A stretch of DNA of 24,094 nucleotides from a virus (taxonomy: Duplodnaviria; Caudoviricetes). The stretch lies in IMG/VR virus record IMGVR_UViG_3300017716_002789, positions 1-24,094 of that record; one strand, 5' to 3'. The notes beneath the pieces were generated by a model. That model ran no database searches. It was not told the DNA's origin and worked only from the letters and a program-made list of their open reading frames with translations. Both the position numbers and the translations under genes were made by a program. How positions within the stretch are numbered: position 1 is the first letter of the stretch; each line of letters starts with the position of its first letter. Positions 1,890 through 24,094 of the stretch are shown here, one piece after another.

Positions 1890-1906
1890 GTAGTCTGCCG
1901 GACTAC
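1890..1906. promoter_or_regulatory. operator-like dyad 1 (GTAGTC-TGCCG-GACTAC), likely HigA site
   Basis: Perfect 6-bp inverted repeat with 5-bp spacer upstream of higB; same arms as the dyad at 1923. Confidence 0.7.
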
Positions 1907-1914
1907 GTTTTCGC

Positions 1915-1943
1915 TTGTGTTCTGTAGTCCATCAGACTACACA
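1915..1943 (+). promoter_or_regulatory. putative higBA promoter (TTGTGT-N17-TACACA) overlapped by operator-like dyad 2 (TGTAGTC-CATCA-GACTACA, 1923-1941)
   Basis: Sigma70-like spacing in an AT-richer intergenic stretch, 27 bp before the higB ATG. The dyad fills the spacer and overlaps the -10. Confidence 0.6.
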
Positions 1944-8727: not shown

Positions 8728-9181
8728 GGTTTGCCTCTCCGATCCGCCAGGCCGCGACGACCTCAGCCCGGCCGATCCACAGGCCGCGCGGTGCGCGCGT
8801 TGCCCAGCGCGCGCCGGTGCAGATCGCGCCGGCCAGGGCCGGGCCGTCCTCACTCAGAATTCTCACGACGCCCACATCGCCACGACGCACGCCGTGCGTT
8901 GCGCTGTTGTCGATCCGGGCAAAGCCCACCATCGCCGCGCGGGCCAGTTCCAGCACGCCGCCCGAGGCAGCCAGCACGGCCGCCGGATCATGGGCGGCGG
9001 CGCGCCAGGACGCGGCCGGATCCGGATGGCCCAGATGAACCATCCAGTCCGCCGGCAGCAGCAGGCAGTTCGACGCCCGCCGGTCAGGGTTGCGTCGCGA
9101 CTGTTCGCGCAGGAAGGTCGCCAAACAATCACTGGCAGGCCGGTCACCCAGCTCGCCGGCCCCGCTCTTCAGCTCGGCCAT
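8720..9181 (-). CDS. tail assembly protein, NlpC/P60-like (DUF6950/gpK-like)
   Basis: NCLLLPADW and RRGDVGVV motifs. Position between hub and tip genes, overlapping both neighbours. Confidence 0.65.
   Translation of the reverse strand: MAELKSGAGELGDRPASDCLATFLREQSRRNPDRRASNCLLLPADWMVHLGHPDPAASWRAAAHDPAAVLAASGGVLELARAAMVGFARIDNSATHGVRRGDVGVVRILSEDGPALAGAICTGARWATRAPRGLWIGRAEVVAAWRIGEANHG
8885..8899. repeat. dispersed dyad motif, copy 1: ACGCAC-GCC-GTGCGT (inside CDS)
   Basis: Exact match read from the sequence; flanks CG...TG. Confidence 0.85.
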
Positions 9182-9768
9182 TTCCGCGTGCTGTCGCGGG
9201 CGTACAGGCCGATCCTGTCGAAGAACTCATCATCCGGAAAACGGGCACGCTGCCCGGCCCCGGTCGCATAGGCCTGAACCCCCCGACGGCGCAGATAGGA
9301 CCCGGCCACGAGCGTCACCGAGATCGCCCGCTCCCAGGTCGCGTCATTCTTGCGGGCCCGGCGAACCCGGGGATTGAACAGCTTGCCGCGCAGGGGCCAG
9401 CGGATCGGTCCGGCCGGACGATAGCGTTCGTCCAGGATCGCCCAGCCCATGGCCGCCGAGGATCCGACGATCTGATCGCGGTCCAGGATGTAGGACTGGA
9501 TCGTCTCCGTGCTTACGCCCGACAGCTGCAGGGTCAGGCCCTGCGCCGCGCCGTTCATGGCCATGTCGATATCGGGCAGGCCCGGGCCGAACGACCCCGC
9601 CGCCAGATAGATACCGCCGGTCGTCTCGACGCCGTCCGCCGGCACGGGATAGTCACCGGCGGTGGCCGTCAGCCGCAGCACGGTCCCGCCCACCTCGGCG
9701 CGAAAGAAAAAGGCCAGGTTCTGTCGGTCAGACCGGCAGATCGCCCGCTCGGTGGCGTTGAAACTCAT
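9169..9768 (-). CDS. minor tail / hub protein (gpL-like position), 199 aa
   Basis: Start re-assigned to ATG 9768 (MSFNATE), which forms an ATGA overlap with the upstream stop. C-terminal Q.ARFP.D.FFD....Y.....KWP motif. Confidence 0.7.
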   Translation of the reverse strand: MSFNATERAICRSDRQNLAFFFRAEVGGTVLRLTATAGDYPVPADGVETTGGIYLAAGSFGPGLPDIDMAMNGAAQGLTLQLSGVSTETIQSYILDRDQIVGSSAAMGWAILDERYRPAGPIRWPLRGKLFNPRVRRARKNDATWERAISVTLVAGSYLRRRGVQAYATGAGQRARFPDDEFFDRIGLYARDSTRKWPS

Positions 9769-10442
9769 CGAACCGCCTCGACGAACCGCACCGAGGGCCG
9801 GGCGATCCAGCTCCGCGACATCTTCGGCCACAGACCGCCCTCGGGATCGTTCACCCGCATGGCGCAATGGGGATTGTTGAAATTGACCGGCGTGCCGGCC
9901 GCATGGGCCTGGCGGAACTGCGGCGCGATCGACACCGACCACAGGCCGGGCTCGACCTCGGTCATGGTCTCACACAGGTGCATCTCTTCACCCAGGCTGG
10001 CGGACCGCACCAGGCTGAAGACATCCGCACCCAGCAGTGTGCCACCCGTGACCCGGATCAGGGCCGTGTCGGCGCGCAGCACGACCGCCTCTTCCAGCTC
10101 GGCGGTGATCAGGCCGACGATCTCGCCGGTCCCGTCGGAATACTCGCTGTCGTCCGAGAACGGCACCTCGACCAGCCCACCCGTCGGGGATTGCTCGATG
10201 AAGGGCACGTCGATCCGCGCGCCGCCGCGCATCCGGCTGGCCAGAGCGCGCACCGCCCGGTGCTCGGCCGAGGTCGCCGCCCGCATCTCGCCGAACTCGG
10301 CGATCCAGTAGCCGCCGCCGTCCGTCGTCACCCCATCGGGCGGCAGGCCGAAACTGGCCGGGCCGTCGACACGGGCGTCGGCCAGTCGCCATTGCAGCAT
10401 GGACGGCAGGAACGGCCGGGACAGGGGCAGGCGCTCGATCAT
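9765..10442 (-). CDS. distal tail protein (Dit-like), 225 aa
   Basis: Directly after the tape measure gene. Motifs GGGYW.A, VPFSDDSEYSDGTG, I.P.FR and C-terminal FVEA. Confidence 0.7.
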   Translation of the reverse strand: MIERLPLSRPFLPSMLQWRLADARVDGPASFGLPPDGVTTDGGGYWIAEFGEMRAATSAEHRAVRALASRMRGGARIDVPFIEQSPTGGLVEVPFSDDSEYSDGTGEIVGLITAELEEAVVLRADTALIRVTGGTLLGADVFSLVRSASLGEEMHLCETMTEVEPGLWSVSIAPQFRQAHAAGTPVNFNNPHCAMRVNDPEGGLWPKMSRSWIARPSVRFVEAVR

Positions 10443-10444
10443 CG

Positions 10445-13201
10445 TCAGCCCTTCATCATGCGGTCGACGCGCTGCACCGAAGGGGCCGTAGCATGGACCG
10501 TGCTGACGGCTGAGCTTGCACCCCGCGCGGCCCCGACCGAGGCGGCCTGCACGTCACCGCGCTGGATCATCTGCCAGAACTCGGGCGTCATAAGATTGCC
10601 GCTGAAATGGTTGTGCACCACGGCCGGGGCCCCGCCCCCGCCCGCACCCGCGCCCATCATGGCCAGGCTGCGGGCATTGCTGGCGATCTGGGCCCCACGC
10701 GGTGCCCGGATCAGCTCCGGGCCTTCCTCGCCGACCCAGGTCCAACCGCCGGACCAATAGTCCGTGCCGGCCGCGTTGTTGCCGGGCTTCTTGCCGCCGG
10801 TGAAGCTCGAGAACAGGGCGCTGATCCAGTCACCGGCGCCGCCCTTGCCGCCACCAAATCCGCCACCGCCGCCCTGATTGAAGATGCTCGCCCAGTCGAT
10901 GTCGAACAGCTTGTCGACCAGATTTTCAATCAGGCGGTCGACCGACTGGTCAAACTGGCTGGTCAGGGCCTCGCGGATCCCGCCCTGGCGGATGTCGTCG
11001 ATGAAGCTCTTCGTCCAGGCGCGACGGGCACCCTCGGCCTGGGCATCGATCTCCTGACCGATTTCGGTCTTTGCCCGGCTCTCGCCCTCACCCCGGTTAA
11101 GCCCTTCGCGGGACTCGATCTCGCGAGCCCGCGACGCGATGCGCGCCCTGCGCTCCAGCCCCTCGACCTCCGCCTCGCGGCCGGCCAGCCGGGCCAGCGT
11201 CAGACGCTGTTCCTCAGCGGCCTCGGCGACAATCCGGGCCATGACCTCGGCGCGGGCCTCTTCGACCTGCAACTGGTCCCGGGCCGCCTTCAGCCAGGCG
11301 TCATAATATCCACGCCCGGCGTCGACATAGGTCGCGATCCGTTCTTGCAGATCGGCGCTGCGCTCGGAAAGCGCGACGTCCCGCTCGAGCCCCAGGATGC
11401 GATCGACCTCGATCGCCGCCGCAATCTGTGCAGCATTGGTTTCGCGTTCGGAGACGATGGCACGCGCGGCCAGCAGCTGCTGCTGTTCCTGCAAGGCTTG
11501 AGTGCGCGCAGCACCGGCCTCGACATCGTCGTCGACCAGCTGGCGGATCCGCTCGCGAAGAGCCGCTTCATCTTCCAGCACACGGACATGATCCACATCG
11601 CCCAGGGCGCGGGTCATCTCCAGTTCAATCATCGCCGCTCGGTCTTCGGCGGCGCGATCACGCTGCAAACGCTCACGGGCAGCGCGATCCCCAGATCGGT
11701 CCGTCCGAGTGCGCGGCGCGCCATCCTGGGCCAGTTGTGCCGCCTGGTTGTCTGCTGCGTCAGCATTTGCTCGCCCACGTCGGTCATCATCCAGCTGGTC
11801 ACGCAGAAGCTGGGCTCGCTCCTCCTCAAGGCGGGTGATGAAGCCCGGGGACAGCTGAATGCCGCGCGACTCCCGATCCCGGGCTCCCATAATCGCCTTA
11901 TCCAGGCTGGCCAACCGTTCGTCCGGCGTCGTGTAGAGGGCGCGCCCCAGCTCGTCCCAATAGTTGCTGACGGCTCGCGCGGCCGCATCCCAGGCGCTTT
12001 CGATCGAGCCGATGCGCTCGGCCTGCCCGTCAACGGCCCCGGTCAGGGCCTCCAGCAGGATCTTCTGCGCGGCCAGCCGGTCACCGTGCTTCACCAGGGT
12101 GTCGATATGAGCCAGCGTCTCCTGATCCAGCAGACCGATCTGGCGGGTCAGTTCCCGCGCAGCCTTGTCCGGCTCGGTCATCGCCTTGGCCAAGGATGCG
12201 GTCGCCTGTTCGGCGTCCATACCCATGACGGCGGCGTAGTCCTTGCCGATCGCGATCAGGCCGCCGATCACCTCTCCGCCGATCCTGCCCGTCTGGACGT
12301 AGGCAGCGGCCTGGGCGCGCGCCGAGCGCACCGAAACCTCGCCTCGGATGGCAGCCGACTGCGTCAGGGTTTCCAGTTCAATGGCCGTCAGGCCCGAGGT
12401 CCGGCCCAGGCCGGTCACGGCCCGATCCAGCACCAGAGCCTGGGACTCGCCGTCTTTCCAGGCAGCCGCCGCCACCGCCGCCGCGCCGGCCGCTGCGGTA
12501 AGAGCGGCACCCATGGCCAGCAGGCCGGCCGAGGCGCGGATCCCGCTGGTCGCAAGGGCGTCCGCGATCTGCGGTCCTTGCTGCATGGCGATCATCGCCG
12601 GGTTCATGCCCATGGCCGCGGTCACGGCCACATCTGCCCCCTGACGGGCCAGGTTCAGTCGGCTGGCCACCTGGTTGCGGGTCAGGCCGTTCGTGTTCTG
12701 GGCCAAGGCCGCCGTCGTCGCATCCAGCCGGGTCTTGGCCAGCGCCTGCGCCTGGGCCAGTTCCATCGTGCTGATCGCGCCGCGTTTCTGCAGGCCGTCA
12801 TATTCGCGCAGTTCGGCGTTGTAACGGTCCGTGGCCGCCGCCAGCGGATCGATCTCCGCCTTCAGCTGGGCCGCGCGGCGGGCCGCATCTTCATCGGCCC
12901 GGAACGCGGCGGCGAACACATCGGCCGAGGCGCTGGCGCTGCCCGCGCCATATCCACCGACGCCCAGCGCCGCGTTGAACTGGTTCTGGGCCTGCGACGC
13001 CTGAGCCGCCATCCGCAGGGCCTCGGCATTACGCCGCCACTGGGCTTCCTGCCGCTCGGCGGCTTGGGTCGCCCGGTCCGTCGCTGCCGCCGTTGCGGTA
13101 TTGGCCTGGACCCCGGCCTCTTCGATCCTGCGGACTTCGCTGATGACCTCGGCCCCACCCTCAGGCTTCAGCCGGAACGCGATCTGACGGGTAGTAGCCA
13201 T
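10445..13201 (-). CDS. tail tape measure protein, 918 aa
   Basis: Ala-rich helical protein. Lambda-type motif QGADVAVTAAMGMNPAMIAMQQGPQI and C-terminal AAGTDYWSGGWTWVGEEGPEL. Confidence 0.93.
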   Translation of the reverse strand: MATTRQIAFRLKPEGGAEVISEVRRIEEAGVQANTATAAATDRATQAAERQEAQWRRNAEALRMAAQASQAQNQFNAALGVGGYGAGSASASADVFAAAFRADEDAARRAAQLKAEIDPLAAATDRYNAELREYDGLQKRGAISTMELAQAQALAKTRLDATTAALAQNTNGLTRNQVASRLNLARQGADVAVTAAMGMNPAMIAMQQGPQIADALATSGIRASAGLLAMGAALTAAAGAAAVAAAAWKDGESQALVLDRAVTGLGRTSGLTAIELETLTQSAAIRGEVSVRSARAQAAAYVQTGRIGGEVIGGLIAIGKDYAAVMGMDAEQATASLAKAMTEPDKAARELTRQIGLLDQETLAHIDTLVKHGDRLAAQKILLEALTGAVDGQAERIGSIESAWDAAARAVSNYWDELGRALYTTPDERLASLDKAIMGARDRESRGIQLSPGFITRLEEERAQLLRDQLDDDRRGRANADAADNQAAQLAQDGAPRTRTDRSGDRAARERLQRDRAAEDRAAMIELEMTRALGDVDHVRVLEDEAALRERIRQLVDDDVEAGAARTQALQEQQQLLAARAIVSERETNAAQIAAAIEVDRILGLERDVALSERSADLQERIATYVDAGRGYYDAWLKAARDQLQVEEARAEVMARIVAEAAEEQRLTLARLAGREAEVEGLERRARIASRAREIESREGLNRGEGESRAKTEIGQEIDAQAEGARRAWTKSFIDDIRQGGIREALTSQFDQSVDRLIENLVDKLFDIDWASIFNQGGGGGFGGGKGGAGDWISALFSSFTGGKKPGNNAAGTDYWSGGWTWVGEEGPELIRAPRGAQIASNARSLAMMGAGAGGGGAPAVVHNHFSGNLMTPEFWQMIQRGDVQAASVGAARGASSAVSTVHATAPSVQRVDRMMKG

Positions 13202-13202
13202 G

Positions 13203-13901
13203 TCAGTCCCTCCAGGCGTTGGCGATCAGGGTGGCCCCGACGCCGGCGGACCGTTCGGCCACCGCGTCCAGATCCAGCCGCTTCTTCAGAGTCACCTGCG
13301 GCACCAGAACGAAGGCGACGAAAGTCTGCCCTTCCGGGCCGTACAGTTTCGCGCCGCGACCCTTGCCCCGGTAGGGAGCGATGATCCCGCCGCTTCTGCG
13401 GTTCAGCTGCGCGCGGTCCGCGACCAGAAAGGCGCGGTTCCCCTTGCCCGGGACGAACCTCAGTTTCAGTCCGGTGCGCCGCTCGAAGCCAGCGGGCGTG
13501 ATCCGCTCGCGCGCACCCTTCCGGTTCGTGGTGGCGCCGGCCCCGGACATCCCGGCCTTCAGACCGAACCGGCCCGCCTCGGGCGTCGGAACGGCCAGCC
13601 ATTTGCCCCGGTTGGCCCGGATCACCACGCCCTTCGAATGGGCGTCGATGATCTTGGCGGCCGAGCCGCGGACCTTGACCCAGCCGGCGGCGTCGACGCT
13701 GTCGCCCGTCCGGGGATAGACTTCGCCGCGCCAGGCCTTTGGCAGACTGTTCCGGAAACCCAGGGCGAGAAACGTCTCTTCGCGGACGTCGGCCTTCAGC
13801 GCCTCGGTCGCCGCCTTGACGCCGAGCGTGACCGCCCGTGCCAGATCCTTTTCGAGGCCCCGGGCGAGGCCGGCCATGTCAAAGGAACCGCGCACGGCCA
13901 T
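13203..13901 (-). CDS. DUF6441-like basic virion morphogenesis (neck/tail completion) protein, 232 aa
   Basis: GVVIRANRGKWLAVPT and FVLVPQVTLKKRLD motifs; Arg/Gly-rich. Confidence 0.65.
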   Translation of the reverse strand: MAVRGSFDMAGLARGLEKDLARAVTLGVKAATEALKADVREETFLALGFRNSLPKAWRGEVYPRTGDSVDAAGWVKVRGSAAKIIDAHSKGVVIRANRGKWLAVPTPEAGRFGLKAGMSGAGATTNRKGARERITPAGFERRTGLKLRFVPGKGNRAFLVADRAQLNRRSGGIIAPYRGKGRGAKLYGPEGQTFVAFVLVPQVTLKKRLDLDAVAERSAGVGATLIANAWRD

Positions 13902-13904
13902 GGC

Positions 13905-14243
13905 CTATTCATCCACTTCCGACTCTTCGCCCTTCAGCGCCAGCAGCACGACCGTCTCGATCTCGGGCAGGATCTCAGCCAGCAGGGCCGCGTCCGCGCC
14001 CAGCGCCTGGCCGACCTGCATGACCGCCCCGAAGTCCAGGCCGTAGGGCCCGTTCATTCCCATCCGCAGCTGCCAGCGGCAGCCCTTGACGACACTCCAG
14101 ACCGTCAGGCCTTCGCCGGTTCGGGGCTGGTTGACGACGGCGGGACACTCCCGGCATCGGTGGCCGTTGTCGGTGATGCATCCGTCGCAGTAGCTGTCGC
14201 CGCCCTCGGGGTGGAATTCCCACCTTGCGAGGGCGACAAGCCG
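13905..14243 (-). CDS. gpT-like frame of the gpGT tail chaperone, reached by -1 frameshift (112 aa after the slip)
   Basis: Hand-translated: RLVALARWEFHPEGGDSYCDGCITDNGHRCRECPAVVNQPRTGEGLTVWSVVKGCRWQLRMGMNGPYGLDFGAVMQVGQALGADAALLAEILPEIETVVLLALKGEESEVDE*. Stop TAG at 13905-13907, 3 bp before the next ATG. The GLD(F/Y) motif is typical. Confidence 0.85.
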   Translation of the reverse strand, partial: RLVALARWEFHPEGGDSYCDGCITDNGHRCRECPAVVNQPRTGEGLTVWSVVKGCRWQLRMGMNGPYGLDFGAVMQVGQALGADAALLAEILPEIETVVLLALKGEESEVDE

Positions 14244-14635
14244 TTTTTTTCAGCTTCGGCCTCCAGCAGCGGGCCTGCGTACTGGCGCTCAAACGCCTCA
14301 TAGGCCGGGAACCAGCCCAGCAGCTGATCAATCTGTTCCGGTGTCGGCTGCCCCTCGATCGGAGATCCGTCGCTGTCGGCCACGCCTTCCAGAGCCCGCA
14401 GGCCGCCACGCCGCTCGGGCGGCGCGTCAGGATCCGGGCGATGCACCAGCGCCCCGATCAGGGCGCAGCGATAGCGGGAATGCAGGTCGTGCGGCTCGCC
14501 TTCGCCGGCGGCCAGCACCAGGTCGCGGGCCAGGCCCTTGGCGCGCAGATAGTCATGGGGCTGGATCGGGTCACAGACGGCAACCGCGCCAGGCCCGAGA
14601 TCAATACGAACAGGCGCGAAACTCTTCAGCTGCAT
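14105..14635 (-). CDS. tail assembly chaperone (gpG-like), 176 aa
   Basis: Start re-assigned to ATG 14635 (MQLKSFAP). Follows the tail tube gene. EKNG slippery site followed by a low-complexity Ser/Thr/Pro tail. Confidence 0.8.
   Translation of the reverse strand: MQLKSFAPVRIDLGPGAVAVCDPIQPHDYLRAKGLARDLVLAAGEGEPHDLHSRYRCALIGALVHRPDPDAPPERRGGLRALEGVADSDGSPIEGQPTPEQIDQLLGWFPAYEAFERQYAGPLLEAEAEKNGLSPSQGGNSTPRAATATATDASPTTATDAGSVPPSSTSPEPAKA
14243..14249 (-). other. -1 ribosomal frameshift heptamer A AAA AAC
   Basis: Minus strand reads GAA AAA AAC GGC in the gpG frame, a correct X XXY YYZ phase. The -1 frame is open to 13905. Confidence 0.85.
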
Positions 14636-14659
14636 GAGGACAGACTCGGTTAAGGCGAA

Positions 14660-14685
14660 AGCCCCGCCGGCGAACCGGCGGGGCT
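14660..14685 (-). terminator. 11-bp stem-loop with TTCG loop and short U run (partial terminator or stabiliser) after tail tube gene
   Basis: Minus strand AGCCCCGCCGG-TTCG-CCGGCGGGGCT-TTCG. Confidence 0.6.
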
Positions 14686-14712
14686 GGGGGAAGCGGGCGG
14701 GTATTCGATGCA

Positions 14713-14727
14713 ACGCACGCCGTGCGT
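14713..14727. repeat. dispersed dyad motif, copy 2 (intergenic, after tail tube gene)
   Basis: CA-ACGCAC-GCC-GTGCGT-CG. Confidence 0.85.
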
Positions 14728-14803
14728 CGGGTGGTGATTGGCCGGGCGCCCGGCGCCCAGCCCGCGTCGGGTCGACAGGGCGGAGCCCTGTGACCGCGGG
14801 CCC

Positions 14804-16096
14804 TTAGTAGGATGCCACGTCGTTGACCAGGATGGCCCGCAGCGTGCGCTGCGTTGCGGCCTTCTCGGTCGGCTTCATCTGGAACGTGGTGCGGATCCCG
14901 CCGGGGCCGGTCAGGCCGACCTTGCGGCGCGGCAGGCGGACGTTCTCCATGATGATGTCCAGCCGCTTCAGGGGACTGATCTGCCAGCCCAGCCGGACCG
15001 AGATCGGCGTCTTCGAGGTGGCCTTGTCGAACAGCACGCGGTCCGCGAACCGCGCCGTCACATCCAGCCCGACCGACAGCATGGCGGGATCGGCCCCGCC
15101 GATGCGGCCGTCCGACCGGATCGATTCGTCCTTGTCCAGATTGTTGCCGATGCGCAGCGTGGCAGTGTCGACGCGGGCCAGCGGAACGCCGTCCTGTTCG
15201 ATGTAACCCGAGAACTGGCTGAAACGCTCGAAGGCCCAGTCGGACTCCAGCGTTCCGGCAAGCGACGAAGCCGACGGGGTCTCACCCTGGCCGATCAAGC
15301 CGATGGTGGCGTTCAGCAGGCCCGACCGCTGCATCTGGATTGACATGTCGTTGGCCATCACGCCGTAGTTCATGCCGTAGTGCGGCACATCGGGGAAACC
15401 CAGCTGGATTGCCGCGTCGGGGTGGGCGAGCTGGCCCGCGGTAAAGATATGGTTGAAGGCCCCCGAGGCAGCGCCGCCGGTCAGGGTGGCGGCAGAGCGG
15501 GTGGCGTTCGTGGCCGGGCTGGTTCCGGCCACAAGGGTGAAGCTGTTACCGGGCGTGCCGATCGTGTCATGCACGATGTTCAGCACAGTACCCGACAGGC
15601 TGGCCGAATAGGTCGCGGCGGCGATCCCGGCGTCGGCGCTGGCATTCAGGAAGATGACCAGGTTGTTGATCGTATCCGCCAGGGTGGCCCCAATCTGGCA
15701 CTGGCCTGCGGTCGGGGCAGCGGTCACCAGCGTGACTGCCGTGCCGCCGATGGTCAGGACCGAGTTGTTCGCCGGCTGGGCCGAGAAGGCATAGGAGCCC
15801 GTCGCGAACAGGCCCGCCGTCGACACGGGCTGGCCCAGCATCAGCTTCAGCCACAGGCCGAAATGGCGCAGATCCACGGGCACGACGCCCGAGCCTTCAT
15901 TCTTGATGACATCGTCCCCGCCGTCCTGCGGATCGCGGCCGAAGCCGAGGACCACGTCGTCCAGCACATCCTGGTCCTCGCCCAGATCCATGCTGACGAC
16001 CGGAACCTTGCGGAAACCGGACCCCGGGACCGTGCCGTAACCAGCCGTGGCCATAGCCAGGGCGACAATGCCGTTTGCACCGCGAGCGCGAGCCAT
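14804..16096 (-). CDS. major tail tube protein with internal extra domain, 430 aa
   Basis: MARARGAN, LGFGRDP, VVPVDLRHFGLWLKLMLG, HIFTAG, GPGGI and LVNDVASY motifs of the alphaproteobacterial tail tube family. Confidence 0.85.
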   Translation of the reverse strand: MARARGANGIVALAMATAGYGTVPGSGFRKVPVVSMDLGEDQDVLDDVVLGFGRDPQDGGDDVIKNEGSGVVPVDLRHFGLWLKLMLGQPVSTAGLFATGSYAFSAQPANNSVLTIGGTAVTLVTAAPTAGQCQIGATLADTINNLVIFLNASADAGIAAATYSASLSGTVLNIVHDTIGTPGNSFTLVAGTSPATNATRSAATLTGGAASGAFNHIFTAGQLAHPDAAIQLGFPDVPHYGMNYGVMANDMSIQMQRSGLLNATIGLIGQGETPSASSLAGTLESDWAFERFSQFSGYIEQDGVPLARVDTATLRIGNNLDKDESIRSDGRIGGADPAMLSVGLDVTARFADRVLFDKATSKTPISVRLGWQISPLKRLDIIMENVRLPRRKVGLTGPGGIRTTFQMKPTEKAATQRTLRAILVNDVASY

Positions 16097-16108
16097 GGGA
16101 GTCTCCGA

Positions 16109-16540
16109 TCAGAGAGGGGAAGGGGTTGAATAGTAGGCGATGATCGCCGCTTCGCTGGCCGCGCCGGACTCGGCACCGGCGATGTCCAGATCGCCCCGGT
16201 CGGGGGCAGTCGTCTCCAGCCATTCGACCAGACCGCCCAGCGTCCGGTCGGCCTCCACGGCGGAACCGACTGCGACCTGCATCGCATCCAGCGCCTGGCC
16301 GGCCGTCAGGCTGGCCGTCTGCAGGGCACCGAACAAAAGGCCGAACGGGTGGGAATAGTTGTAAACCAGGGGCGACAGATCGACCTCGGGCTCGCCCGGG
16401 TCGCCGTCCGAAATATCCACGGCACCGCCGGCGGGAATCTCATCCGCCTTGGCCTGGTTCCGCGTCACCGTCGCTGACGGCAAGGCGGCCGTCACCAGTG
16501 CCTCGATTGCGGCAGCGACCTGTTCGCGTTTGCTGGTCAC
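16109..16540 (-). CDS. tail terminator (gpU-like), 143 aa
   Basis: SKREQV..AI, DGDPGEPEV.LSP..Y.Y.H and ADRTLGGLV motifs; directly before the tube gene. Confidence 0.75.
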   Translation of the reverse strand: MTSKREQVAAAIEALVTAALPSATVTRNQAKADEIPAGGAVDISDGDPGEPEVDLSPLVYNYSHPFGLLFGALQTASLTAGQALDAMQVAVGSAVEADRTLGGLVEWLETTAPDRGDLDIAGAESGAASEAAIIAYYSTPSPL

Positions 16541-16851
16541 GCCGGAATTTCCTTGACTTCGCAGGTCCAGATCCGGGTCCGCGTCAGACGCGGCTTGGCC
16601 AGAACCTCCAGCACGACACCGTCAGCGGCGCGCGTAATCGTGTCCCCGATTCCCGGGGTCGGGACCTGGCTGCGACGCACCCGGACAAACCGGGTGCGGA
16701 CGACACGCTGGCCGTCCCCCCATCCGTCCAGATCGTCCCGTTCGGCGCAGCGGATCCGCACGGAACCCGACACGCCGGACCAGGTCGCATCCTCGCCGAG
16801 GCGGCGGAACACAGCATCCTGCTGGCGGTCCACGACCTCGGCGAAAGACAT
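16537..16851 (-). CDS. head-tail joining protein (gpFII-like), 104 aa
   Basis: Size, position, and motifs FRRLGEDATW, P..GDTI and C-terminal W. Confidence 0.7.
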   Translation of the reverse strand: MSFAEVVDRQQDAVFRRLGEDATWSGVSGSVRIRCAERDDLDGWGDGQRVVRTRFVRVRRSQVPTPGIGDTITRAADGVVLEVLAKPRLTRTRIWTCEVKEIPA

Positions 16852-16859
16852 CGGCGTGC

Positions 16860-17192
16860 TTAGATCGTCGGTTGCAGACGAACGCGACCCACCGCGGCGG
16901 CGGCGAGCTTGGCGTCGACCGCATAGCCGGCCTTCTGGTTGCTGCCGGCGGTCGTGGTGAAGTTCTTGGCGGTGTCGTCCCAGTAAACCAGGGCGCCTTG
17001 CGTCCAGGCCTGGGAGGTCGCCGCGGCGACGTCAAACACGCCCGTGACGTGCCCAGCGAAGGTCGCACCGACCGCAGCCGCGATGGCGGGCACAGCGATG
17101 ATGAGGCCGATCTTGACCGGCGCGCCGGCCACAACCCCGCCCGAAGGCGCGATCAGGTCCAGGCTGTTGCCCGGCTGGACGAAGTTTTTCAT
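16860..17192 (-). CDS. DUF2190 family capsid-associated protein, 110 aa
   Basis: Start re-assigned to ATG 17192 (MKNFVQPG) with AAGGA Shine-Dalgarno. GVFDV, VYWD and VRL motifs. Confidence 0.88.
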   Translation of the reverse strand: MKNFVQPGNSLDLIAPSGGVVAGAPVKIGLIIAVPAIAAAVGATFAGHVTGVFDVAAATSQAWTQGALVYWDDTAKNFTTTAGSNQKAGYAVDAKLAAAAVGRVRLQPTI

Positions 17193-17255
17193 GGTCGTTT
17201 TCCTTGCTCTCGAGGGGTCGTTGGCGGAACGCCGCCGGCGAAGACAGGCTGGCCG

Positions 17256-17270
17256 ACGCACGGCGTGCGT
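17256..17270. repeat. dispersed dyad motif, copy 3 (intergenic, after capsid gene; inverted)
   Basis: CCG-ACGCAC-GGC-GTGCGT-CGG, with 9-bp perfect arms at 17253-17273. Confidence 0.85.
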
Positions 17271-17299
17271 CGGACGGCCAGTTCCCGTCGGCAGAAGGC

Positions 17300-17323
17300 C
17301 CGGGGCCGCCGAAGCGGCCCCGG
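17300..17323 (-). terminator. 10-bp stem-loop with cUUCGg tetraloop after capsid gene
   Basis: Minus strand CCGGGGCCGC-TTCG-GCGGCCCCGG. No U tract, so probably a 3' stabiliser or pause site. Confidence 0.55.
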
Positions 17324-17342
17324 ATATTCAGGAAGAGAGGGA

Positions 17343-19508
17343 TCAGGCCCCGGTGTTGCGATAACCGAAGCGGAAGTCCGTGGCGGCGCAGCCGAAGTCG
17401 TGCTCCAGCTGGACCTTGACGCCCTGCTGACCGAACTGGTCCTCGATGCGCAGGCGCGGGGCCTGGTAGCCGTCCAGCAGACCCCAGGTCCAGTTGGTCC
17501 CGAACCGGGCGTCCGTATAGAGTTCCCAGGCGTTGCCGGTCAGCTGACCGCCGACGACCAGTTCCAGCTTGCCCGAGAACGGGTTGGCCTTGGCGACGTC
17601 ATTGGCGATCACGGCCGTCAGGGCCATTTCCGCCTCGGTCTCCTTGTCCGGCGACACCAGCAGGATGGCGGCGGCCTGACCCATCTGCTGACCCGACAGG
17701 TTCTTCTGTTTGCGCAGGGCCGCCCGGCCGATGCCGAGGCTGGTCGTGCTGATGGCCGTGCCGGTGCCGGTGTAGTTGCCGTGGTCGACATGGAAGACGG
17801 CCTTGGCGTCTTCGTTCAGCACCGGGCCGACGCCCGAAGAGACGCCCTTCATGGCAAAGAAGGTCAGTTCTTCGAACAGGGCGACCTGATCGCCCTGGCT
17901 GCCCAGGATCTGATCGATGGCACCGAGGTTGTCGTTCACCAGCAGTTGGCGGGACAGACCGAAGCCGACGCCGTAGGGGCGGACGAAGGCCGTTTCCTTC
18001 TTCTCGCCGATCGTGCCCTGCTTGATCTCGCCCGTCTCGCTGACGCCCTGCAGCTGCGGGAAGTCCCCGGGGCGCAGCACGTCATGGGCGCGGAAGTCCA
18101 TGAAGGTCATCTGGCGCGCGATGCGGCGATAGACCGGCGTGGCGGTCAGGTAGTTCTCCTGCAGGCGCGAGTTCAGCGCGCCGGACAGCAGGATCGGGAA
18201 GTCGCTGGTCGAGTGGAAGGCCCGCGAATACAGGTCGATGCGCTCGGCCGCGGTGCGGGGCATTTCGCGCTCGCCGAGGGAGCGGGCGGCGAGTTCAGAA
18301 AGCGAATGCCGCAGGAACGGTTCCGCCGCCGTGCGGGCATTGCGGCCAGCTTCGGTGTCCTCGAACTCGGTGCGGCCGGCCGACCGGCGCAGGCCGGCCA
18401 GGATGGCAGCCGGAACCCCGGCCCGAACGCGGTCGCGATCCTCGACCACAACACGACCGCCGGATCCGGCAGCGACACCACCAGTGGCGGTACGCTGGGC
18501 ATCGGCAGCGGCGGCCATGATCGCGGCGCGGGCAGATTCCACGCTGATCGAGCCGGCCGCGTTCTGGGTGACCAGTTCGTTGGCGCGGGCGTCAACGCCG
18601 AGCGCACGGGCCTGATCGACGAAGGCGACTGCCTCGACGGCCGAGAAGCGCGAAACTTCAACCGCCGCCGGAGCTGCGGCCGGAGCGGCGCGGGTTTCGA
18701 CGGCGGCAGCCGGGGTGGCGGCCGTTTCGGTGGCCCGGGTGTCCGGGGTGGCGGCATTACCGGGGCCGTTGGTGTCGTAGGCCACGCGGGCAGCCGACAG
18801 GGCCAGAGCGGCGGCCGTGCCGCCCAGCGAAAGGGAGCGTCTCATATCTTCGTCCTCTTGAGGGGTGGCGACAGCGCCGGTGGAAGCGGGAAGTCCGGGG
18901 GAAGGGGCCGCCGAGCGCACCCCGGCGGCGGGATCGGCGGGAACTGTGACCAGGCTGCCTTCCAGGAGTTCCCAGGAGGTCGCGCGCCAGGTGTGTTTTT
19001 CGGTCTCGGCATCAATCGCCACGACGGCCCAGGCCTTGGGCGCATAGCCGATCGAGATGCCGCGCAGCTCGCCGCGTGAGACCATGCCTTCGGCCTCGCG
19101 GCCGGCAGGCGTATCAGCGAAGCGCGCCGTGGCGGTCAGGGCGGCGACGCCACCGATGGTTTCGAACCGGACGGCGGTGATGGTGCCCAGATTGGCGTTG
19201 ATGCCGTAGCGGTTGTGGCTGTCCAGCAGTGGCACGACGCCCTGGGCGACGCGCCCGATGTCGACCGCCGTTGCGGAGATCTCCAGCTCTTCTACGAAGT
19301 AGTGCCTGTCGACGGCCGAGCCGGTCGACAGGACCAGTTCCACAGTCCGTGCCTCGGCACTGTAGGTCGAGGGCGTGAAGGCCGCGAACCGTGACTGCGG
19401 GCCGGTCGGAGGGTGAGCGCGGCGATCCTCGCCCGCGGCGGGTGCGTCACGGGTCATCGGAGCGAGGGCCAGAAGGGCCGTCGCCGCAATCAGAGCGGTC
19501 TTTGTCAT
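17343..19508 (-). CDS. prohead protease / major capsid protein fusion, 721 aa
   Basis: N-terminal HK97-type protease (PLLDSH, GELRGISIGY, WELLEGSLVTVPAD), Ala/Pro-rich scaffold-like linker, then capsid domain (RAFHSTSDFPILL...DFGCAATDFR). Confidence 0.92.
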   Translation of the reverse strand: MTKTALIAATALLALAPMTRDAPAAGEDRRAHPPTGPQSRFAAFTPSTYSAEARTVELVLSTGSAVDRHYFVEELEISATAVDIGRVAQGVVPLLDSHNRYGINANLGTITAVRFETIGGVAALTATARFADTPAGREAEGMVSRGELRGISIGYAPKAWAVVAIDAETEKHTWRATSWELLEGSLVTVPADPAAGVRSAAPSPGLPASTGAVATPQEDEDMRRSLSLGGTAAALALSAARVAYDTNGPGNAATPDTRATETAATPAAAVETRAAPAAAPAAVEVSRFSAVEAVAFVDQARALGVDARANELVTQNAAGSISVESARAAIMAAAADAQRTATGGVAAGSGGRVVVEDRDRVRAGVPAAILAGLRRSAGRTEFEDTEAGRNARTAAEPFLRHSLSELAARSLGEREMPRTAAERIDLYSRAFHSTSDFPILLSGALNSRLQENYLTATPVYRRIARQMTFMDFRAHDVLRPGDFPQLQGVSETGEIKQGTIGEKKETAFVRPYGVGFGLSRQLLVNDNLGAIDQILGSQGDQVALFEELTFFAMKGVSSGVGPVLNEDAKAVFHVDHGNYTGTGTAISTTSLGIGRAALRKQKNLSGQQMGQAAAILLVSPDKETEAEMALTAVIANDVAKANPFSGKLELVVGGQLTGNAWELYTDARFGTNWTWGLLDGYQAPRLRIEDQFGQQGVKVQLEHDFGCAATDFRFGYRNTGA

Positions 19509-19519
19509 TGGTGTCCCCG

Positions 19520-21040
19520 TCAGGTTCCGGCGTTTGCCTGGCCTGCGCCCTGCTGGGTCGACAGGTATCCGGCGGCGGCCTGAAGCACGCCGCTGTCAGT
19601 CAGGCGGCGCGGATCGGTTTCCAGCGCCAGTTTCAGATCGTCGATCATCGTGTTCAGTTCGGCGATCTTGTTCAGGTGGTCTTCGGCATTGATGCCGCGC
19701 TCGGCCAGCGACTGGCTCAACAGCTTCAGACCAGCGCGGATCTCCATGACCTCGCCCATCAGATCCTTGACCGGGTCGACATAGCGCCGCTTCGGCATGG
19801 CCCACTGGGCGCGAACCTCAAGGAAACGGGTGTCGCCGGTCTGAAGCGCCAGGCGGCGCATGCGACGCGCGAATGCCGGATTGCAGAGGCGCGGGACCAT
19901 CAGATTCTGTTGCCAGTCATCCAGCAGGGCCCAGTGACCCAGCATGGCGGCGCGCAGGCTCGAATAGTTGGCTTGGGACACATCCCCGGTCATCAGATGA
20001 TAGGGCACCATCGACGCCGATACGGCCGCCAGCTGCTGGCGGATGAAATCGACGCTATCGCCGTCCGTGTTCGGCTGAAGAGTGCTGGCCGTCGTTCCAG
20101 ACGGCGGCCGGATAATCATGCCCGGCCGCAGCGTCTCGATATCCGGGGCCGAGGTCCCGACTGAAGATCCGGACGCGGTTTCCCCGGTCAGCAGCGGCGA
20201 GCCGGCCGAGCCTTCACCGGCCGTCAGGATCAGGGCCAGACAGTTCTGGACCTTCTTCTTCAGGCGAATGGCCTGTTCGATGTCGGCGATGTCCTGAAAG
20301 GTCATCGCACTGGCCGCAAACCATGAAACGCCACGATCCGCACCGAAGCGGTCGCGCTCATAAAGGTGATCGACGTGCCGCGCCGGGATCAGCCGCGACC
20401 GGCGCGAGCCGCGCCAGGTCAGGTCGCCGGGGTGGCGATCGAACAGCCAGTAGCCGACACGGTTGTTGTCGCTGTCATACCGCACGCCCAGGGCGTCGCG
20501 GGATCCGTCAGCATCCTCTCCGACCTTGCTTTCGTCCAGGCTGTCGCTTTCCAGCCCCTCGATCCGTCCGTCAGGGCCCTGATTGTCAGCCTTCCAGAGC
20601 GTCAGCGTCTCGCCGCCGACGACCATGCCGCCGAAGGCCAGCTTCTGATAGCCGTACCAGTCGTCCTGGCCGTCGACCATGGACTCGGCCCAGCGGTCGA
20701 AATCGTCCTGCGCCAGCCGGCGCACGATCGGATCCGCGTGCACGGCCTGGGCGGCGATGCCGTCTCCGATCGCATTGGCAACGATCTGGCGCTTGGCCGT
20801 GAAGGCATATTTGTTGTTCCGGACCAGGTCGTGGCCGGTATTGCTCAGTCGGCGAAGCCCGCCGGACAGTTCGACATTGGCCCCGGAGGCCGGGGTGCGG
20901 CGACCATTGTGCCGACCAGCGGCGGCAGCATCATAGCCTCGGATCATCCCCAGCGCCTGACGCGCCGCGATGCGGCGCGCGCCGGCGGCCGGCGAAAACA
21001 CGGCGATGGTGTTGTCGATCAGATCACCCAGGACGGACAT
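19520..21040 (-). CDS. portal protein, lambda family, 506 aa
   Basis: DLVRNNKYA, RGVSWFA, LMTGDVSQANYSSLRA and VDPVKD motifs. Confidence 0.95.
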   Translation of the reverse strand: MSVLGDLIDNTIAVFSPAAGARRIAARQALGMIRGYDAAAAGRHNGRRTPASGANVELSGGLRRLSNTGHDLVRNNKYAFTAKRQIVANAIGDGIAAQAVHADPIVRRLAQDDFDRWAESMVDGQDDWYGYQKLAFGGMVVGGETLTLWKADNQGPDGRIEGLESDSLDESKVGEDADGSRDALGVRYDSDNNRVGYWLFDRHPGDLTWRGSRRSRLIPARHVDHLYERDRFGADRGVSWFAASAMTFQDIADIEQAIRLKKKVQNCLALILTAGEGSAGSPLLTGETASGSSVGTSAPDIETLRPGMIIRPPSGTTASTLQPNTDGDSVDFIRQQLAAVSASMVPYHLMTGDVSQANYSSLRAAMLGHWALLDDWQQNLMVPRLCNPAFARRMRRLALQTGDTRFLEVRAQWAMPKRRYVDPVKDLMGEVMEIRAGLKLLSQSLAERGINAEDHLNKIAELNTMIDDLKLALETDPRRLTDSGVLQAAAGYLSTQQGAGQANAGT

Positions 21041-21043
21041 GGA

Positions 21044-21256
21044 TCAGCCCCCCTGGAACGACGCGAGCGTGGTTCCCATCGTCTGGCGTCCGGTCGGCGC
21101 AGCGGCGGCCTTGCGGGTAAAGTAGGCAAGGGCCTTCTGGATCTCGACAGTCGACCGATAGGTCACCCGGTCGCCATCCGACTCCACTGTGACCTCGCCC
21201 GAGGCAAGGCCGGCTTCCAGCTGGGCAATCTCGACGGCGTAATCGGGGGCAGGCAT
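21044..21256 (-). CDS. head completion/adaptor protein (gpW-like), 70 aa
   Basis: LEAGLASGEVTVESDGDRVTYRS motif; between terL and portal; TGATG coupling. Confidence 0.88.
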   Translation of the reverse strand: MPAPDYAVEIAQLEAGLASGEVTVESDGDRVTYRSTVEIQKALAYFTRKAAAAPTGRQTMGTTLASFQGG

Positions 21257-23394
21257 CAGAGATAGTCCCCCTTGACGTCGATATAGCCCGGGGCCGAAGC
21301 CCGCGGCTCACTCTTCACAGCCACCGGTGAAGCAGGCGGCGTTACACCGACCGCGCCGGCCAGCAGATCGCCCTGCAGCGGATCCTTCGCGGCATACCGC
21401 TCGACCCGCAGCTTCGCCCAGTCGGCCTCCGACAGGGTGTCCAGCATCAGCTTCTCGGCCGCCGCGATGTTGTAGACTCGGCAGTCCAGGTAGTGGTTTT
21501 CGCGCCCCGGCAGGGGCTGCCACTTCCGCTTCGGATAGCCGTGCTCAACGACGCTGACGACCGTCTCGGCCGTGATCATCTCGAACCATTCGTCCGGGGT
21601 GTCCCGGCTGAAATGGCAAAGGCCGCGAGGGCGGTGACCCGCCGCCACGCCCGTTTTCGCTTCTTCGGCCGCCAGCTTCAGCGTCGACCGCAGGAAGCCG
21701 TAGAACATGGCCTTCACGCCATCGACACCGACCAGATAGGCCTTGTCGTCCGCCTTTTTCGAAGCAAACCCGGTGCGGCTGCCCTGCCGCTCATACTTCA
21801 GGTTCTCGCCACGCCCCAGGATCGGTCGGGTCCAGCCGGCACGGCCGAAGACGACCATCCGGTTGGGGCGCATCCGCGCATATTCTTCCGCAGCCTTCGT
21901 GTGATAGCCGCCGTCGACGACTTCCCAATCCAGCGGCAGCGCCTTGCCGCCCGGAAAAACCGTCAGCTGTCGCGACAGCTTGTCCAGATCGACCCAGGCC
22001 CCTTCGCCCGGCACATCGGTGTTGCCGGGCAGGAAGGCCTGGTGCAGCGACCAGCTTTCCGCATCCGGCCCCCAGCCGACCAGTTCGGTGTAGATCCCGT
22101 CGCCCTGGACGTCGCTGGCGCGGGTCAGCACGACCGGCCCCGCCGGCATCTGCCCCGTGCCCCAGTCCTGTGACCGCAGGGCCTTCAATCTGTCATGGTC
22201 CGGCGTCGCGCCGCGCAGTTCGAACGCCGCCCCGCGGGTCAGCATCGTCCAGCCCATCAGCTTGAACTGGTCGCCACGGCAGCCGACGAACTCGACCGCC
22301 ATATCGCCCCAGGTCTGGAAGCTGGTCAGCATGCCGTCGATGTCGAACGCACGTTTGACGCTGCGCACCATCCGGGCGCGCGCCGCTTGAAACTCTTCCT
22401 CCGACAGGACCAGCGGCAGGGTCTCGCCGTCGATCATCTCCGACAGCCAGCAGTCCTGCCGGATCATCGCCAGCTTCTGCCAGTGATGCGTCACCGTCCC
22501 GCAGCAGCGCGGGACCAGATAGGCGTCTTCTGGCCGGCCATCAGGCCATTGAATGTCCCGCTCGCCGTCCGGCTGGGGATCCCAGACGATCCGGAACCGC
22601 GAGGTGCAGTGCGGGCAGGCGTACCAGGCGAACCGGCGATCGACGCCGTCGGCGCTGAACGCCGCGTCGATCTTGCTGGCACCCTTGATCGTCGGGGTCG
22701 AAATCTTGACCCGTTTCGACAGGCCGCGTCGGCGGTAAACCTTTAGTCGCTGATCGACCATGCTCTCGGGTGAGCCCTGGCCGTCCAGGTTGTCCGGAAA
22801 CTGGTCCAGATCGTCTTCGACCGCGTACCGCATGGTGCGGGACCGCAGCCCGGCCGCCGAGTTCGCACCGGCCAGCGCCACATAGGACGACGACCGCGCA
22901 AACCGCAGCTTGTTCTTCGTCGATCCGTCGCCGGTCGCCTCGCCCAGCTGGCGGATCGTGCCGCCGCGCGCCGGGTCCAGCCGAGGCGTGGACTCGATCA
23001 TCGGCCAAAGCTTCTCCGCCGCCCATTCCAGCCCCGCCTTAAGCGTGGACTGCACGAACAGCATCGGGCCCGGGGCCAGGTCAGAGATGAACCCGATCCA
23101 GTTCTCGACCGCCGCCGTGCCGCCCGACTGGGCGCATTTGCGCAGGATCACTTCCTCGCAAGGATCTTGCGGGGACAGGGCGTCCATGGGCTCGACCAGA
23201 TACGGGGCCGTCTCATGACGCCACCGGCCCGGGATCGGCGCATCATCGCTGAAGCGCCGGTATTTCGCCGCCCATTCCGAAACCAGCATCCGCTCGGCGG
23301 GCCGGAACCCTTCCGAGAAAGCCTTGTCCAGTTTGCGGGCGTTGGCCGTCAGGATCGGCGCGGTCGTGCCGAAGGCTTCCAGATCGAACGCCAT
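21256..23394 (-). CDS. terL: terminase large subunit, lambda GpA family, 712 aa
   Basis: VSEWA, TAPYL.EPMD, KCAQSGGT, DDLD.FP, ISTPT, CPHC, DVQ, VDGG and RENHYLDCRVY motifs. Confidence 0.95.
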   Translation of the reverse strand: MAFDLEAFGTTAPILTANARKLDKAFSEGFRPAERMLVSEWAAKYRRFSDDAPIPGRWRHETAPYLVEPMDALSPQDPCEEVILRKCAQSGGTAAVENWIGFISDLAPGPMLFVQSTLKAGLEWAAEKLWPMIESTPRLDPARGGTIRQLGEATGDGSTKNKLRFARSSSYVALAGANSAAGLRSRTMRYAVEDDLDQFPDNLDGQGSPESMVDQRLKVYRRRGLSKRVKISTPTIKGASKIDAAFSADGVDRRFAWYACPHCTSRFRIVWDPQPDGERDIQWPDGRPEDAYLVPRCCGTVTHHWQKLAMIRQDCWLSEMIDGETLPLVLSEEEFQAARARMVRSVKRAFDIDGMLTSFQTWGDMAVEFVGCRGDQFKLMGWTMLTRGAAFELRGATPDHDRLKALRSQDWGTGQMPAGPVVLTRASDVQGDGIYTELVGWGPDAESWSLHQAFLPGNTDVPGEGAWVDLDKLSRQLTVFPGGKALPLDWEVVDGGYHTKAAEEYARMRPNRMVVFGRAGWTRPILGRGENLKYERQGSRTGFASKKADDKAYLVGVDGVKAMFYGFLRSTLKLAAEEAKTGVAAGHRPRGLCHFSRDTPDEWFEMITAETVVSVVEHGYPKRKWQPLPGRENHYLDCRVYNIAAAEKLMLDTLSEADWAKLRVERYAAKDPLQGDLLAGAVGVTPPASPVAVKSEPRASAPGYIDVKGDYL

Positions 23395-24020
23395 CAGCCG
23401 GCCTCCCGCTCTTCTGCCTCCCCTTCCGCCAGGGCCTGGGCCACTTCGGCCTGGACATCGGCGTCGTCTTCATCGGGATCGATGCCGTCCGCGACCTGAC
23501 CAGACGCGATCTGCGCCGCCAGATCCGCGAAGGCCCGTTCGATTTCATCTTCCAGCTGGGCCACGATGGCCCGGGCGTCCCGGTTCGCCGCCAGCCATTC
23601 GGCCTGCGACCGCACCACGGACAGCATCCGCTCGCGCGCCACCCGTCCGAACTCCGACGCACGCCGTGCGTATTCCTCGAGCGGCACCAGGTCACCGGCC
23701 CGCCGCGCGTTCTCCAGCTGCAGCTTCTCGGTCTGCTGACGGATCAGATCCGTCCGCACATCCGCCAGGCTGCCGCCGGCCGCCGGGGCCGAGGTCGGTG
23801 CCGGCGGCAAATCTCCAGCAGGCTGAACCCCGCCCTTAGTCGGACGGCCCCGCGCCGGGTCAATCTTCGCGTTCAGACGCGCCTCGGTCCGCGCGACGTC
23901 GATCTTCACCTTCGTCGGATCCGCTGGATCCTCCGCCATCACCAGGAGCGAGGCCTTAGCCCAGTTCGAAACCGCCGACTTGCCCACCCCTCGGTGAACC
24001 GCAAACTCGCTTTTGCTCAT
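23394..24020 (-). CDS. terS: terminase small subunit (Nu1-like winged HTH); start ATG 24020 or TTG 24047
   Basis: SKSEFAVHRGVGKSAVSNW HTH, ENARRAGDLVP coiled-coil motif, TGATG coupling to terL. Confidence 0.85.
   Translation of the reverse strand: MSKSEFAVHRGVGKSAVSNWAKASLLVMAEDPADPTKVKIDVARTEARLNAKIDPARGRPTKGGVQPAGDLPPAPTSAPAAGGSLADVRTDLIRQQTEKLQLENARRAGDLVPLEEYARRASEFGRVARERMLSVVRSQAEWLAANRDARAIVAQLEDEIERAFADLAAQIASGQVADGIDPDEDDADVQAEVAQALAEGEAEEREAG
23657..23671. repeat. dispersed dyad motif, copy 4 (inside terS)
   Basis: CG-ACGCAC-GCC-GTGCGT-AT. Confidence 0.85.
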
Positions 24021-24094
24021 GAGCCGGGGCGAGTTCACGGGGTTCAAAATCCTATTCAGGGCCTAAGCGTTTTAAGTTTGCGTTTATTCTCCTC

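Follow-up and report, generated by a model that had tools for sequence, protein, structure and literature searches.

Dispersed palindromes of integrating phages as probable loading sites for a phage-encoded ParB-family protein

What reads a perfect 15-bp palindrome that recurs four times among the late genes of a tailed phage is the question raised by a 24,094-nucleotide stretch, IMG/VR record IMGVR_UViG_3300017716_002789 (Caudoviricetes), which we refer to in its full length as the window. A first-pass annotation, made from the letters alone, had described the word as a dyad, ACGCAC-N3-GTGCGT, bound by a dimeric protein that silences or organises the late operon in the manner of mycobacteriophage stoperators, with a ParB-like protein as a secondary suggestion and partition sites and RNA hairpins as alternatives. 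Comparison with related phages, through the symmetry of the word, its co-occurrence with parB and its scarcity in host chromosomes, supports a dimeric phage protein that would read the word at the DNA level, and singles out the ParB-like protein as the candidate. We propose that the palindromes are probably the loading sites of a phage-encoded ParB-family cytidine triphosphate (CTP) clamp that works without ParA, as a KorB-like long-range regulator of transcription.

Results

The palindrome and its recurrence in related phages

Exact copies of ACGCAC-N3-GTGCGT begin at positions 8885, 14713, 17256 and 23657, as first listed, with gaps of 5828, 2543 and 6401 bp between them, and any match to the word was present in 0 of 100 dinucleotide shuffles of the window. 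Markov estimates of 0.7-2.7e-4 expected copies per window agree with the rarity originally put at about 1e-4, and a further match at 2843, with two mismatches, is no more than chance would give. The symmetry of the dyad stands, but its 3-nt centre does not, in that the bases flanking the centre pair as well and make the word a 7-1-7 palindrome, ACGCACG-S-CGTGCGT, around a single S; its shared core is the 6-1-6 palindrome CGCACG-S-CGTGCG. Because the word is palindromic around one base, the copy at 17256, formerly described as reverse-complemented, is merely flipped at that centre base and differs from the others nowhere else. Symmetry was also said to reach often into the flanks, but perfect pairing past 7 bp occurs at 17256 only. 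Two copies lie between genes, one between the capsid stop (17343) and a cement gene and one just past the tail tube stop (14804), and two lie within genes, where they read YARRA in terS and THGVR at 8885 (Table 1), all in agreement with the annotation; the gene around 8885, which had been called gpK-like, matches DUF6950/phrog_2134 and no named gpK family.

The exact word occurs at 58 loci in IMG/VR, with several copies in four contigs, three of which are relatives of the window phage. Relative A694 (G501) carries five copies in 23 kb, G402 carries six in 41.6 kb with gaps of 5.3-7.4 kb, and the complete G448, whose terminase is 92% identical to that of the window, carries ten copies of the 13-bp core. 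In both G402 and G448 the copies are spread over the early and late regions alike, which does not support the array as a feature of the late operon. A counterpart of site 2 follows the tube gene in A694, G448 and G402, and the position of site 3 is occupied in A694 too; overall, site turnover between relatives is free.

In parB-selected genomes the density has a median of 1.8 sites per 10 kb, and spacing is more regular than random placement (42 genomes, median coefficient of variation (CV) of the gaps 0.54, combined p 2e-20). Rough gene calls place 252 sites in genes and 94 between them, so that intergenic DNA holds 27% of the sites in 12% of the sequence. About 90% of sites have G or C at the centre. 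Among 38 genomes the site types are CGAACC (17), CGAACG (13), CGCACG (5), CGAGCG (2) and CGAATG (1), with 238 of 245 perfect sites belonging to the dominant type of their own genome. For the entire collection the estimate is about 2300 stretches in 596 Gb, in order of magnitude the number that chance would produce.

Co-occurrence of the array with parB

Co-occurrence was examined from three sides. In a ParB-first sample, a profile scan gave 80 loci, of which 62 were scanned, L258-L275 (E 1e-6 or weaker) being left out, and 47 were taken to whole contigs, in which palindromes were sought de novo. At least three perfect 6-1-6 palindromes of one type were found in 38 of the 47 contigs, while six carry at least four one-mismatch hybrids (such as CAAACC-N-GGTTCG) and G419 carries two. 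In 38 of 46 genomes the parB GERR codon is preceded by a site no more than 1.5 kb away, where 10.9 genomes would be expected. A motif-first sample was drawn from at least 143 loci found by sequence alone and comprised 50 contigs, namely 36 of the longer among 80 listed and 14 taken blind from the rest, with G447, already in the ParB-first set, excluded from the counts. Here parB (E<1e-30) is present in 17 of 23 contigs with at least three sites vs 1 of 26 with at most two (p=4e-7), and edge fragments of parB are present in two further contigs of the latter group; among records at least 90% complete the figures are 8 of 8 array contigs and 0 of 4 others. When relatives were instead chosen by gene, four phages without parB (G504, G505, G506 and G513), whose terminases are 50-62% identical to that of the window, showed zero or one perfect site over their whole contigs, and G503, with parB and an 83% terminase, showed five perfect CGAACG sites plus variants. 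Site type agrees between nearest neighbours at 0.70 for ParB (0.32 expected), compared with 0.37 for terminase, 0.42 for portal and 0.41 for primase.

These counts bear on the reading of the palindromes as operators or stoperators of an immunity repressor, or of another small phage regulator, that silences the prophage lengthwise. The phages are temperate, some other gene families track site type, and dispersed repressor sites that stop transcription are described for cluster A mycobacteriophages (PMC9283540). However, G402 and G448 share the same site and have unrelated candidate repressors (a 273-aa S24 repressor in G402 and a 112-aa XRE protein in G448), temperate relatives without parB have no array, and no non-ParB family is found in more than 26 of 46 genomes, setting aside a 31-genome family that we read as an antisense shadow of parB. 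Furthermore, stoperators are asymmetric and oriented (PMC4351075), whereas these palindromes are symmetric, without orientation, and their centre base flips between orthologous sites. We regard the repressor as an improbable reader.

The ParB-like protein and its setting

Both G402 and G448 have genes for a serine integrase and for a long ParB-like protein whose N-terminal domain is a winged helix, and the G402 protein contains the Pfam ParB_N and HTH_ParB domains. Predicted CTP-site motifs are present in most of the 66 ParBs compared, GxRR in 61 and ENxxR in 62. The closest solved relative is the C. crescentus ParB (6t1f, E 1e-19), and a predicted model (mean predicted local distance difference test score (pLDDT) 73, predicted template-modelling score (pTM) 0.34) contains the winged helix, a ParB N-terminal domain, a helix-turn-helix (HTH) domain and a long tail, with structural matches to ParB, Noc and KorB (8qa8/8qa9/1r71 for KorB). 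These family features were read on the proteins of the window phage's relatives. The winged helix (residues 1-90 in L196-L256) includes a conserved GRDxSN helix in 46 of the 66 ParBs. Its conservation between G402 and G448 made it a suspected site reader, a role rejected by its absence from 20 of the 66 array-bearing ParBs, which leaves the central HTH domain as the candidate reader.

None of the 66 ParBs has an LGRGL-type ParA-binding motif as this is defined in PMC12704722, and a ParA family (AAA_31) was found in only one of 50 records, there about 15 kb from parB. In annotated records cI, parB and the integrase gene follow one another in the early arm, all in the same direction. This slot is the position of the early left operon of phage lambda. 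An integrase, serine or tyrosine, lies downstream of parB in G402, G448 and 7 of 9 further loci scanned. A plasmid-prophage centromere of the N15 type was rejected on account of the missing ParA and the integrases, and partition sites in general, one of the alternatives raised at first, find neither a cognate parA nor a ParA-binding motif, in phages with integrases and with arrays on host chromosomes. A 15,879-bp contig from the probable source run of the window matches, in order, the integrase, the ParB recognition-helix segment and the methylase of G448, and its 15.9 kb with the 24.1 kb of the window fits a 40-kb genome. Among cultured phages neither this ParB clade nor a close terminase was found (36 weak matches, none covering 80%), scans with the G448 ParB returned the self-match and one weak match only, and a ParB-alignment scan of genome contigs gave chromosomal ParBs only, a result that was not used. 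Around a distant parB in a contig of 42% GC (L254:9092-10870), five copies of another palindrome, of the GTTTTGCA type, form a cluster that resembles an ordinary parS cluster.

A ParB residue that varies with the site

The alignment column most closely tied to the innermost half-site base aligns with residue G201 of C. crescentus ParB, and the equivalent of residue 201 is R or K in 13 of 22 C-type genomes vs 0 of 32 G-type genomes. The direction is the one reported by Jalal et al., in which R201 selects cytosine at position 6 of the Noc site (PMC7383237), although the half-site spacing of the Noc site differs from that of the phage palindromes. The switch is seen between two sister ParBs, with K and CGAACC in G426 and H and CGAACG in G409. 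In a second set of 20 loci, picked by the winged helix alone and with 16 aligned, all kin of the first set and some apparently identical prophages, R/K goes with CC in 5 of 5, E/H/N with CG in 6 of 6 and S/P with CC in 3 of 3, while T is mixed or siteless. The ParB tree is from a quick IQ-TREE search in which 34 of 62 branches are open; nine ParBs that the search pattern missed were left out, and the rows of G469, G430 and G445 were mis-extracted. The covariation would back the central HTH domain as the reader, as supporting rather than decisive evidence.

Host chromosomes and their prophages

Another reading is that the sites serve a protein of the host and were collected by the phage, and the CGAAC half-site is reminiscent of the Gram-positive LexA box. 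The sites are, however, nearly absent from host chromosomes at large: in the host scan called for by the first-pass annotation, two of the 401 genomes from the family to which a Caulobacter metagenome-assembled genome (MAG) belongs contained the word, in a single copy each, and a host repeat was thereby rejected. In lysogens the sites are confined to prophages, with 14 of 16 within 49 kb in G235, 21 of 23 within 89 kb holding two parB genes in G188, 5 of 6 adjoining parB in G163, and 6 of 6 CGAGCG sites on contigs with phage genes in the Caulobacter MAG itself (G001). The chromosome of G296 has two prophages, the first with 9 of 9 CGAACG sites at 58-95 kb and parB at 94.7 kb, and the second with 6 of 6 CGCACG sites at 1356-1387 kb and a second parB at 1357.7 kb; two private site types in one chromosome argue against a host reader. 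The host protein is thus largely refuted already, and we consider it exceedingly improbable. The form of ParB with a winged helix and a long open reading frame is by itself found in roughly 28 of the 401 family genomes.

Single sites and RNA folding

Depressed synonymous change at the two intragenic copies had been put forward as a check. The terS site is kept in A694, L500, G448 (where the sole change is the free centre base) and G503, while elsewhere only 60-84% of identical-residue codons are unchanged, but it is gone from L503 and more distant relatives. At the DUF6950 gene the window and G448 have CGCACG, and in G503 both arms carry that genome's own CGAACG type, at the cost of an H to N change. 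A reading in which the copies are RNA hairpins with a 3-nt loop, serving as processing, pausing or stabilising elements, is suited by the foldability of each copy, by the longer arms of some intergenic copies and by site 3, which folds well (z -3.8), whereas the folding of the other three window copies does not exceed that of shuffled sequences. In 242 of 265 sites the two bases beside the centre are complementary; a hairpin does not account for this, since these bases cannot pair in it, and the sequence itself, beyond pairing, is fixed within a genome. Hairpins are in our estimate very improbable.

Discussion

In the mechanism that we propose, ParB dimers would bind each palindrome through the central HTH domain, and binding of the site by this domain as a dimer is very likely. 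CTP would then close the clamp, which would slide away from its loading site; closure by CTP and spreading as in ParB and KorB are predicted with good probability from the conserved motifs. With loading sites every 4-6 kb, the clamp would blanket the whole phage genome and would tune phage transcription at a distance, early after infection or induction. Early expression of parB is fairly likely, because the gene sits between cI and the integrase. The chances that the output of the clamp would be control of transcription, as opposed to organisation or protection of the DNA, are about even, and control is favoured over compaction or protection because parB has a site at its own 5' end, intergenic DNA holds more than its share of sites and ParA is lacking.

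The same ParB on the same sites could instead have a physical role, in which the clamp compacts, positions or shields phage DNA as it enters or after excision, possibly with host ParA or SMC as helpers, and transcription is little changed. Blanket coverage would suit the even spacing (CV 0.54), the mostly genic location of the sites and their free turnover, and window 8000-24094 gave no sigma-70-like promoter. Such a role fits less well with the absence of ParA from 49 of 50 records and of the LGRGL-type motif from all 66 ParBs, with the many carriers that are integrated proviruses with an integrase, and with the regulator-like enrichment of sites between genes and at the 5' end of parB, and we hold it to be possible but rather unlikely. 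A related and more doubtful idea is self-marking of the phage DNA: a ParB clamp made early would load at private, evenly placed palindromes and cover the whole genome on entry or excision, so as to compact or shield it and to distinguish it from the host chromosome and co-resident prophages. If so, specificity groups would be switched by single residues such as the equivalent of residue 201, and the unexplained dyad arrays of other phages, for example the cluster O mycobacteriophages, would have the same explanation.

Several observations weigh against a regulatory ParB clamp as the explanation. All evidence is comparative, and ParB binding, CTP hydrolysis and regulation are predictions. The window contains no parB, the window phage's own copy is putative, and the 15,879-bp contig is a candidate neighbour of the window. 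Six of the 23 array contigs of the motif-first sample lack parB; they are 24-77% complete and five of them miss the far early arm, but the G481 provirus is a real exception, with part of the early region present and no ParB match. Its CGAACG sites (G481:C1:4181-27767) are in the late half only, and it may be a mosaic with an exchanged early module. G451, an unrelated phage with another terminase and portal, has four CGCACG sites and no ParB match; its palindromes, at 2522, 17144, 17247 and 43666 (L020, L026, L032), have arms of 11-13 bp in a record that is 51% complete. Conversely, the distant ParBs of G441 and G450 come with no palindromes of the array family in whole contigs, and an array of this family is likewise absent with the more distant ParBs of G508, G516, G526, G531 and G532. 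A few smaller early or late-regulator gene families follow site type too. The R/K state at the 201 equivalent arises in about two lineages, so that the p-value overstates its association, and no ParB residue was found that explains CGCACG, the window's own type, vs CGAACG (best adjusted mutual information 0.24). Finally, 73% of sites are inside genes, and thus do not point at promoters.

Among known systems, the closest in operation is KorB-OB of the IncP-1 plasmid RK2, in which a ParB-family protein recognises a 6-1-6 palindrome with a G/C centre (PMC13768133, PMC11790492), with 12 dispersed sites in 60 kb (PMC13768133), a density of about 2 per 10 kb that is close to the phage median of 1.8, and silences promoters at a distance (PMC13768133; PMC11790492). 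The phages described here differ in being integrating and temperate, without ParA (IncC) or a korA-incC-korB operon, in having another site sequence, of several phage-private types, and in the extra winged helix of 46 of 66 ParBs, and a KorA- or TrbA-like partner was not identified, no direct search for one having been made. The phage arrangement would work like KorB-OB yet belongs neither to it nor to ParABS. BisD-bisS of ICEclc is similar in its ParB-like clamp with an extra domain, carried by an integrating element and exerting long-range transcriptional control, but it has two loading sites and activates with BisC (PMC12409273), as opposed to the 4-17 even sites found here, many of them coding.

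Other phages provide further comparisons. The four SopB sites (IR1-4) of the phage-plasmid N15 are scattered over its genome. Like the phages described here, N15 encodes a ParB with several palindromic sites (PMC7205306), but its prophage is a linear plasmid with SopA that needs partition, whereas the phages of the array have integrases and no ParA. Cluster A stoperators resemble the array in their number across a temperate phage genome and their often genic position (PMC9283540), but are asymmetric, oriented and bound by a monomeric immunity repressor, where the present sites are symmetric and parB-linked. Cluster O mycobacteriophages have unexplained 17-bp dyads genome-wide and a ParB-like gp90 without parA, but the dyads have a 7-3-7 geometry and more than 30 copies, there is no integrase, and the source leaves repeat and gp90 unlinked (PMC4351075); from the present comparison, it is possible that the two are a cognate pair. 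HerB (YfjB) of conjugative plasmids is another long ParB-like clamp, active just after DNA entry and not in segregation, but it binds the host chromosome without a parS-like consensus (PMC13370423, a preprint), whereas the phages carry the sites in their own genomes.

About 1% of parB homologues are in prophages, and the divergent ones are mostly orphans without known function (PMC12704722). No description of such arrays in integrating phages was found in the literature searched, from which most subscription papers were missing. One widespread prophage ParB clade hereby gains predicted targets and a natural series of protein-site pairs, and its function becomes directly testable. If the proposal is true, KorB-style clamp regulation extends from plasmids and integrative and conjugative elements to integrating phages, and phage ParBs with their private sites offer orthogonal ParB-site pairs.

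Other features of the window

The window carries late genes only (terS, terL, portal, protease-capsid, tail and lysis genes, and a HigBA pair), and it stops just upstream of terS, without the early region. The genes that hold or precede the palindromes are included in Table 1.

Table 1. Palindromic sites of the window and the genes in or next to which they lie.
Feature	Position	Strand	Remarks
Site 1	8885..8899	.	7-1-7 palindrome within the DUF6950 tail gene (THGVR)
Site 2	14713..14727	.	intergenic, 77 bp downstream of the tail tube stop
Site 3	17253..17273 (core 17256-17270)	.	10 bp arms; intergenic, downstream of the capsid gene; + strand centre G
Site 4	23657..23671	.	within terS (YARRA)
DUF6950 tail gene holding site 1	8720..9181	-	DUF6950/phrog_2134 match
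Tail tube-type gene upstream of site 2	14804..16096	-	phrog_290 (annotated as 'minor tail protein'); taken as tube on gene order
Protease-capsid fusion gene upstream of site 3	17343..19508	-	phrog_4523
Terminase small subunit gene holding site 4	23394..24047	-	at the window end

A stable hairpin element (z -2.5) at window 14749-14802 separates the tail tube stop from site 2, and contigs from other sequencing runs match the window at this element only. Its CAGCCCGCGTCGG end has three copies in A694, each close to a palindrome, and one in G503, and the element is possibly a small repeated RNA or DNA element. The HigB-HigA toxin-antitoxin pair (window 1890-1940 and 1971-2634) is inserted against the lysis genes, and upstream of it are two GTAGTC-N5-GACTAC palindromes, likely HigA operators, with a degenerate copy near 2290. 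The remaining recurring 13-14-mers of the window are explained by three internal repeats of the tail fibre gene (window 5590-6846).

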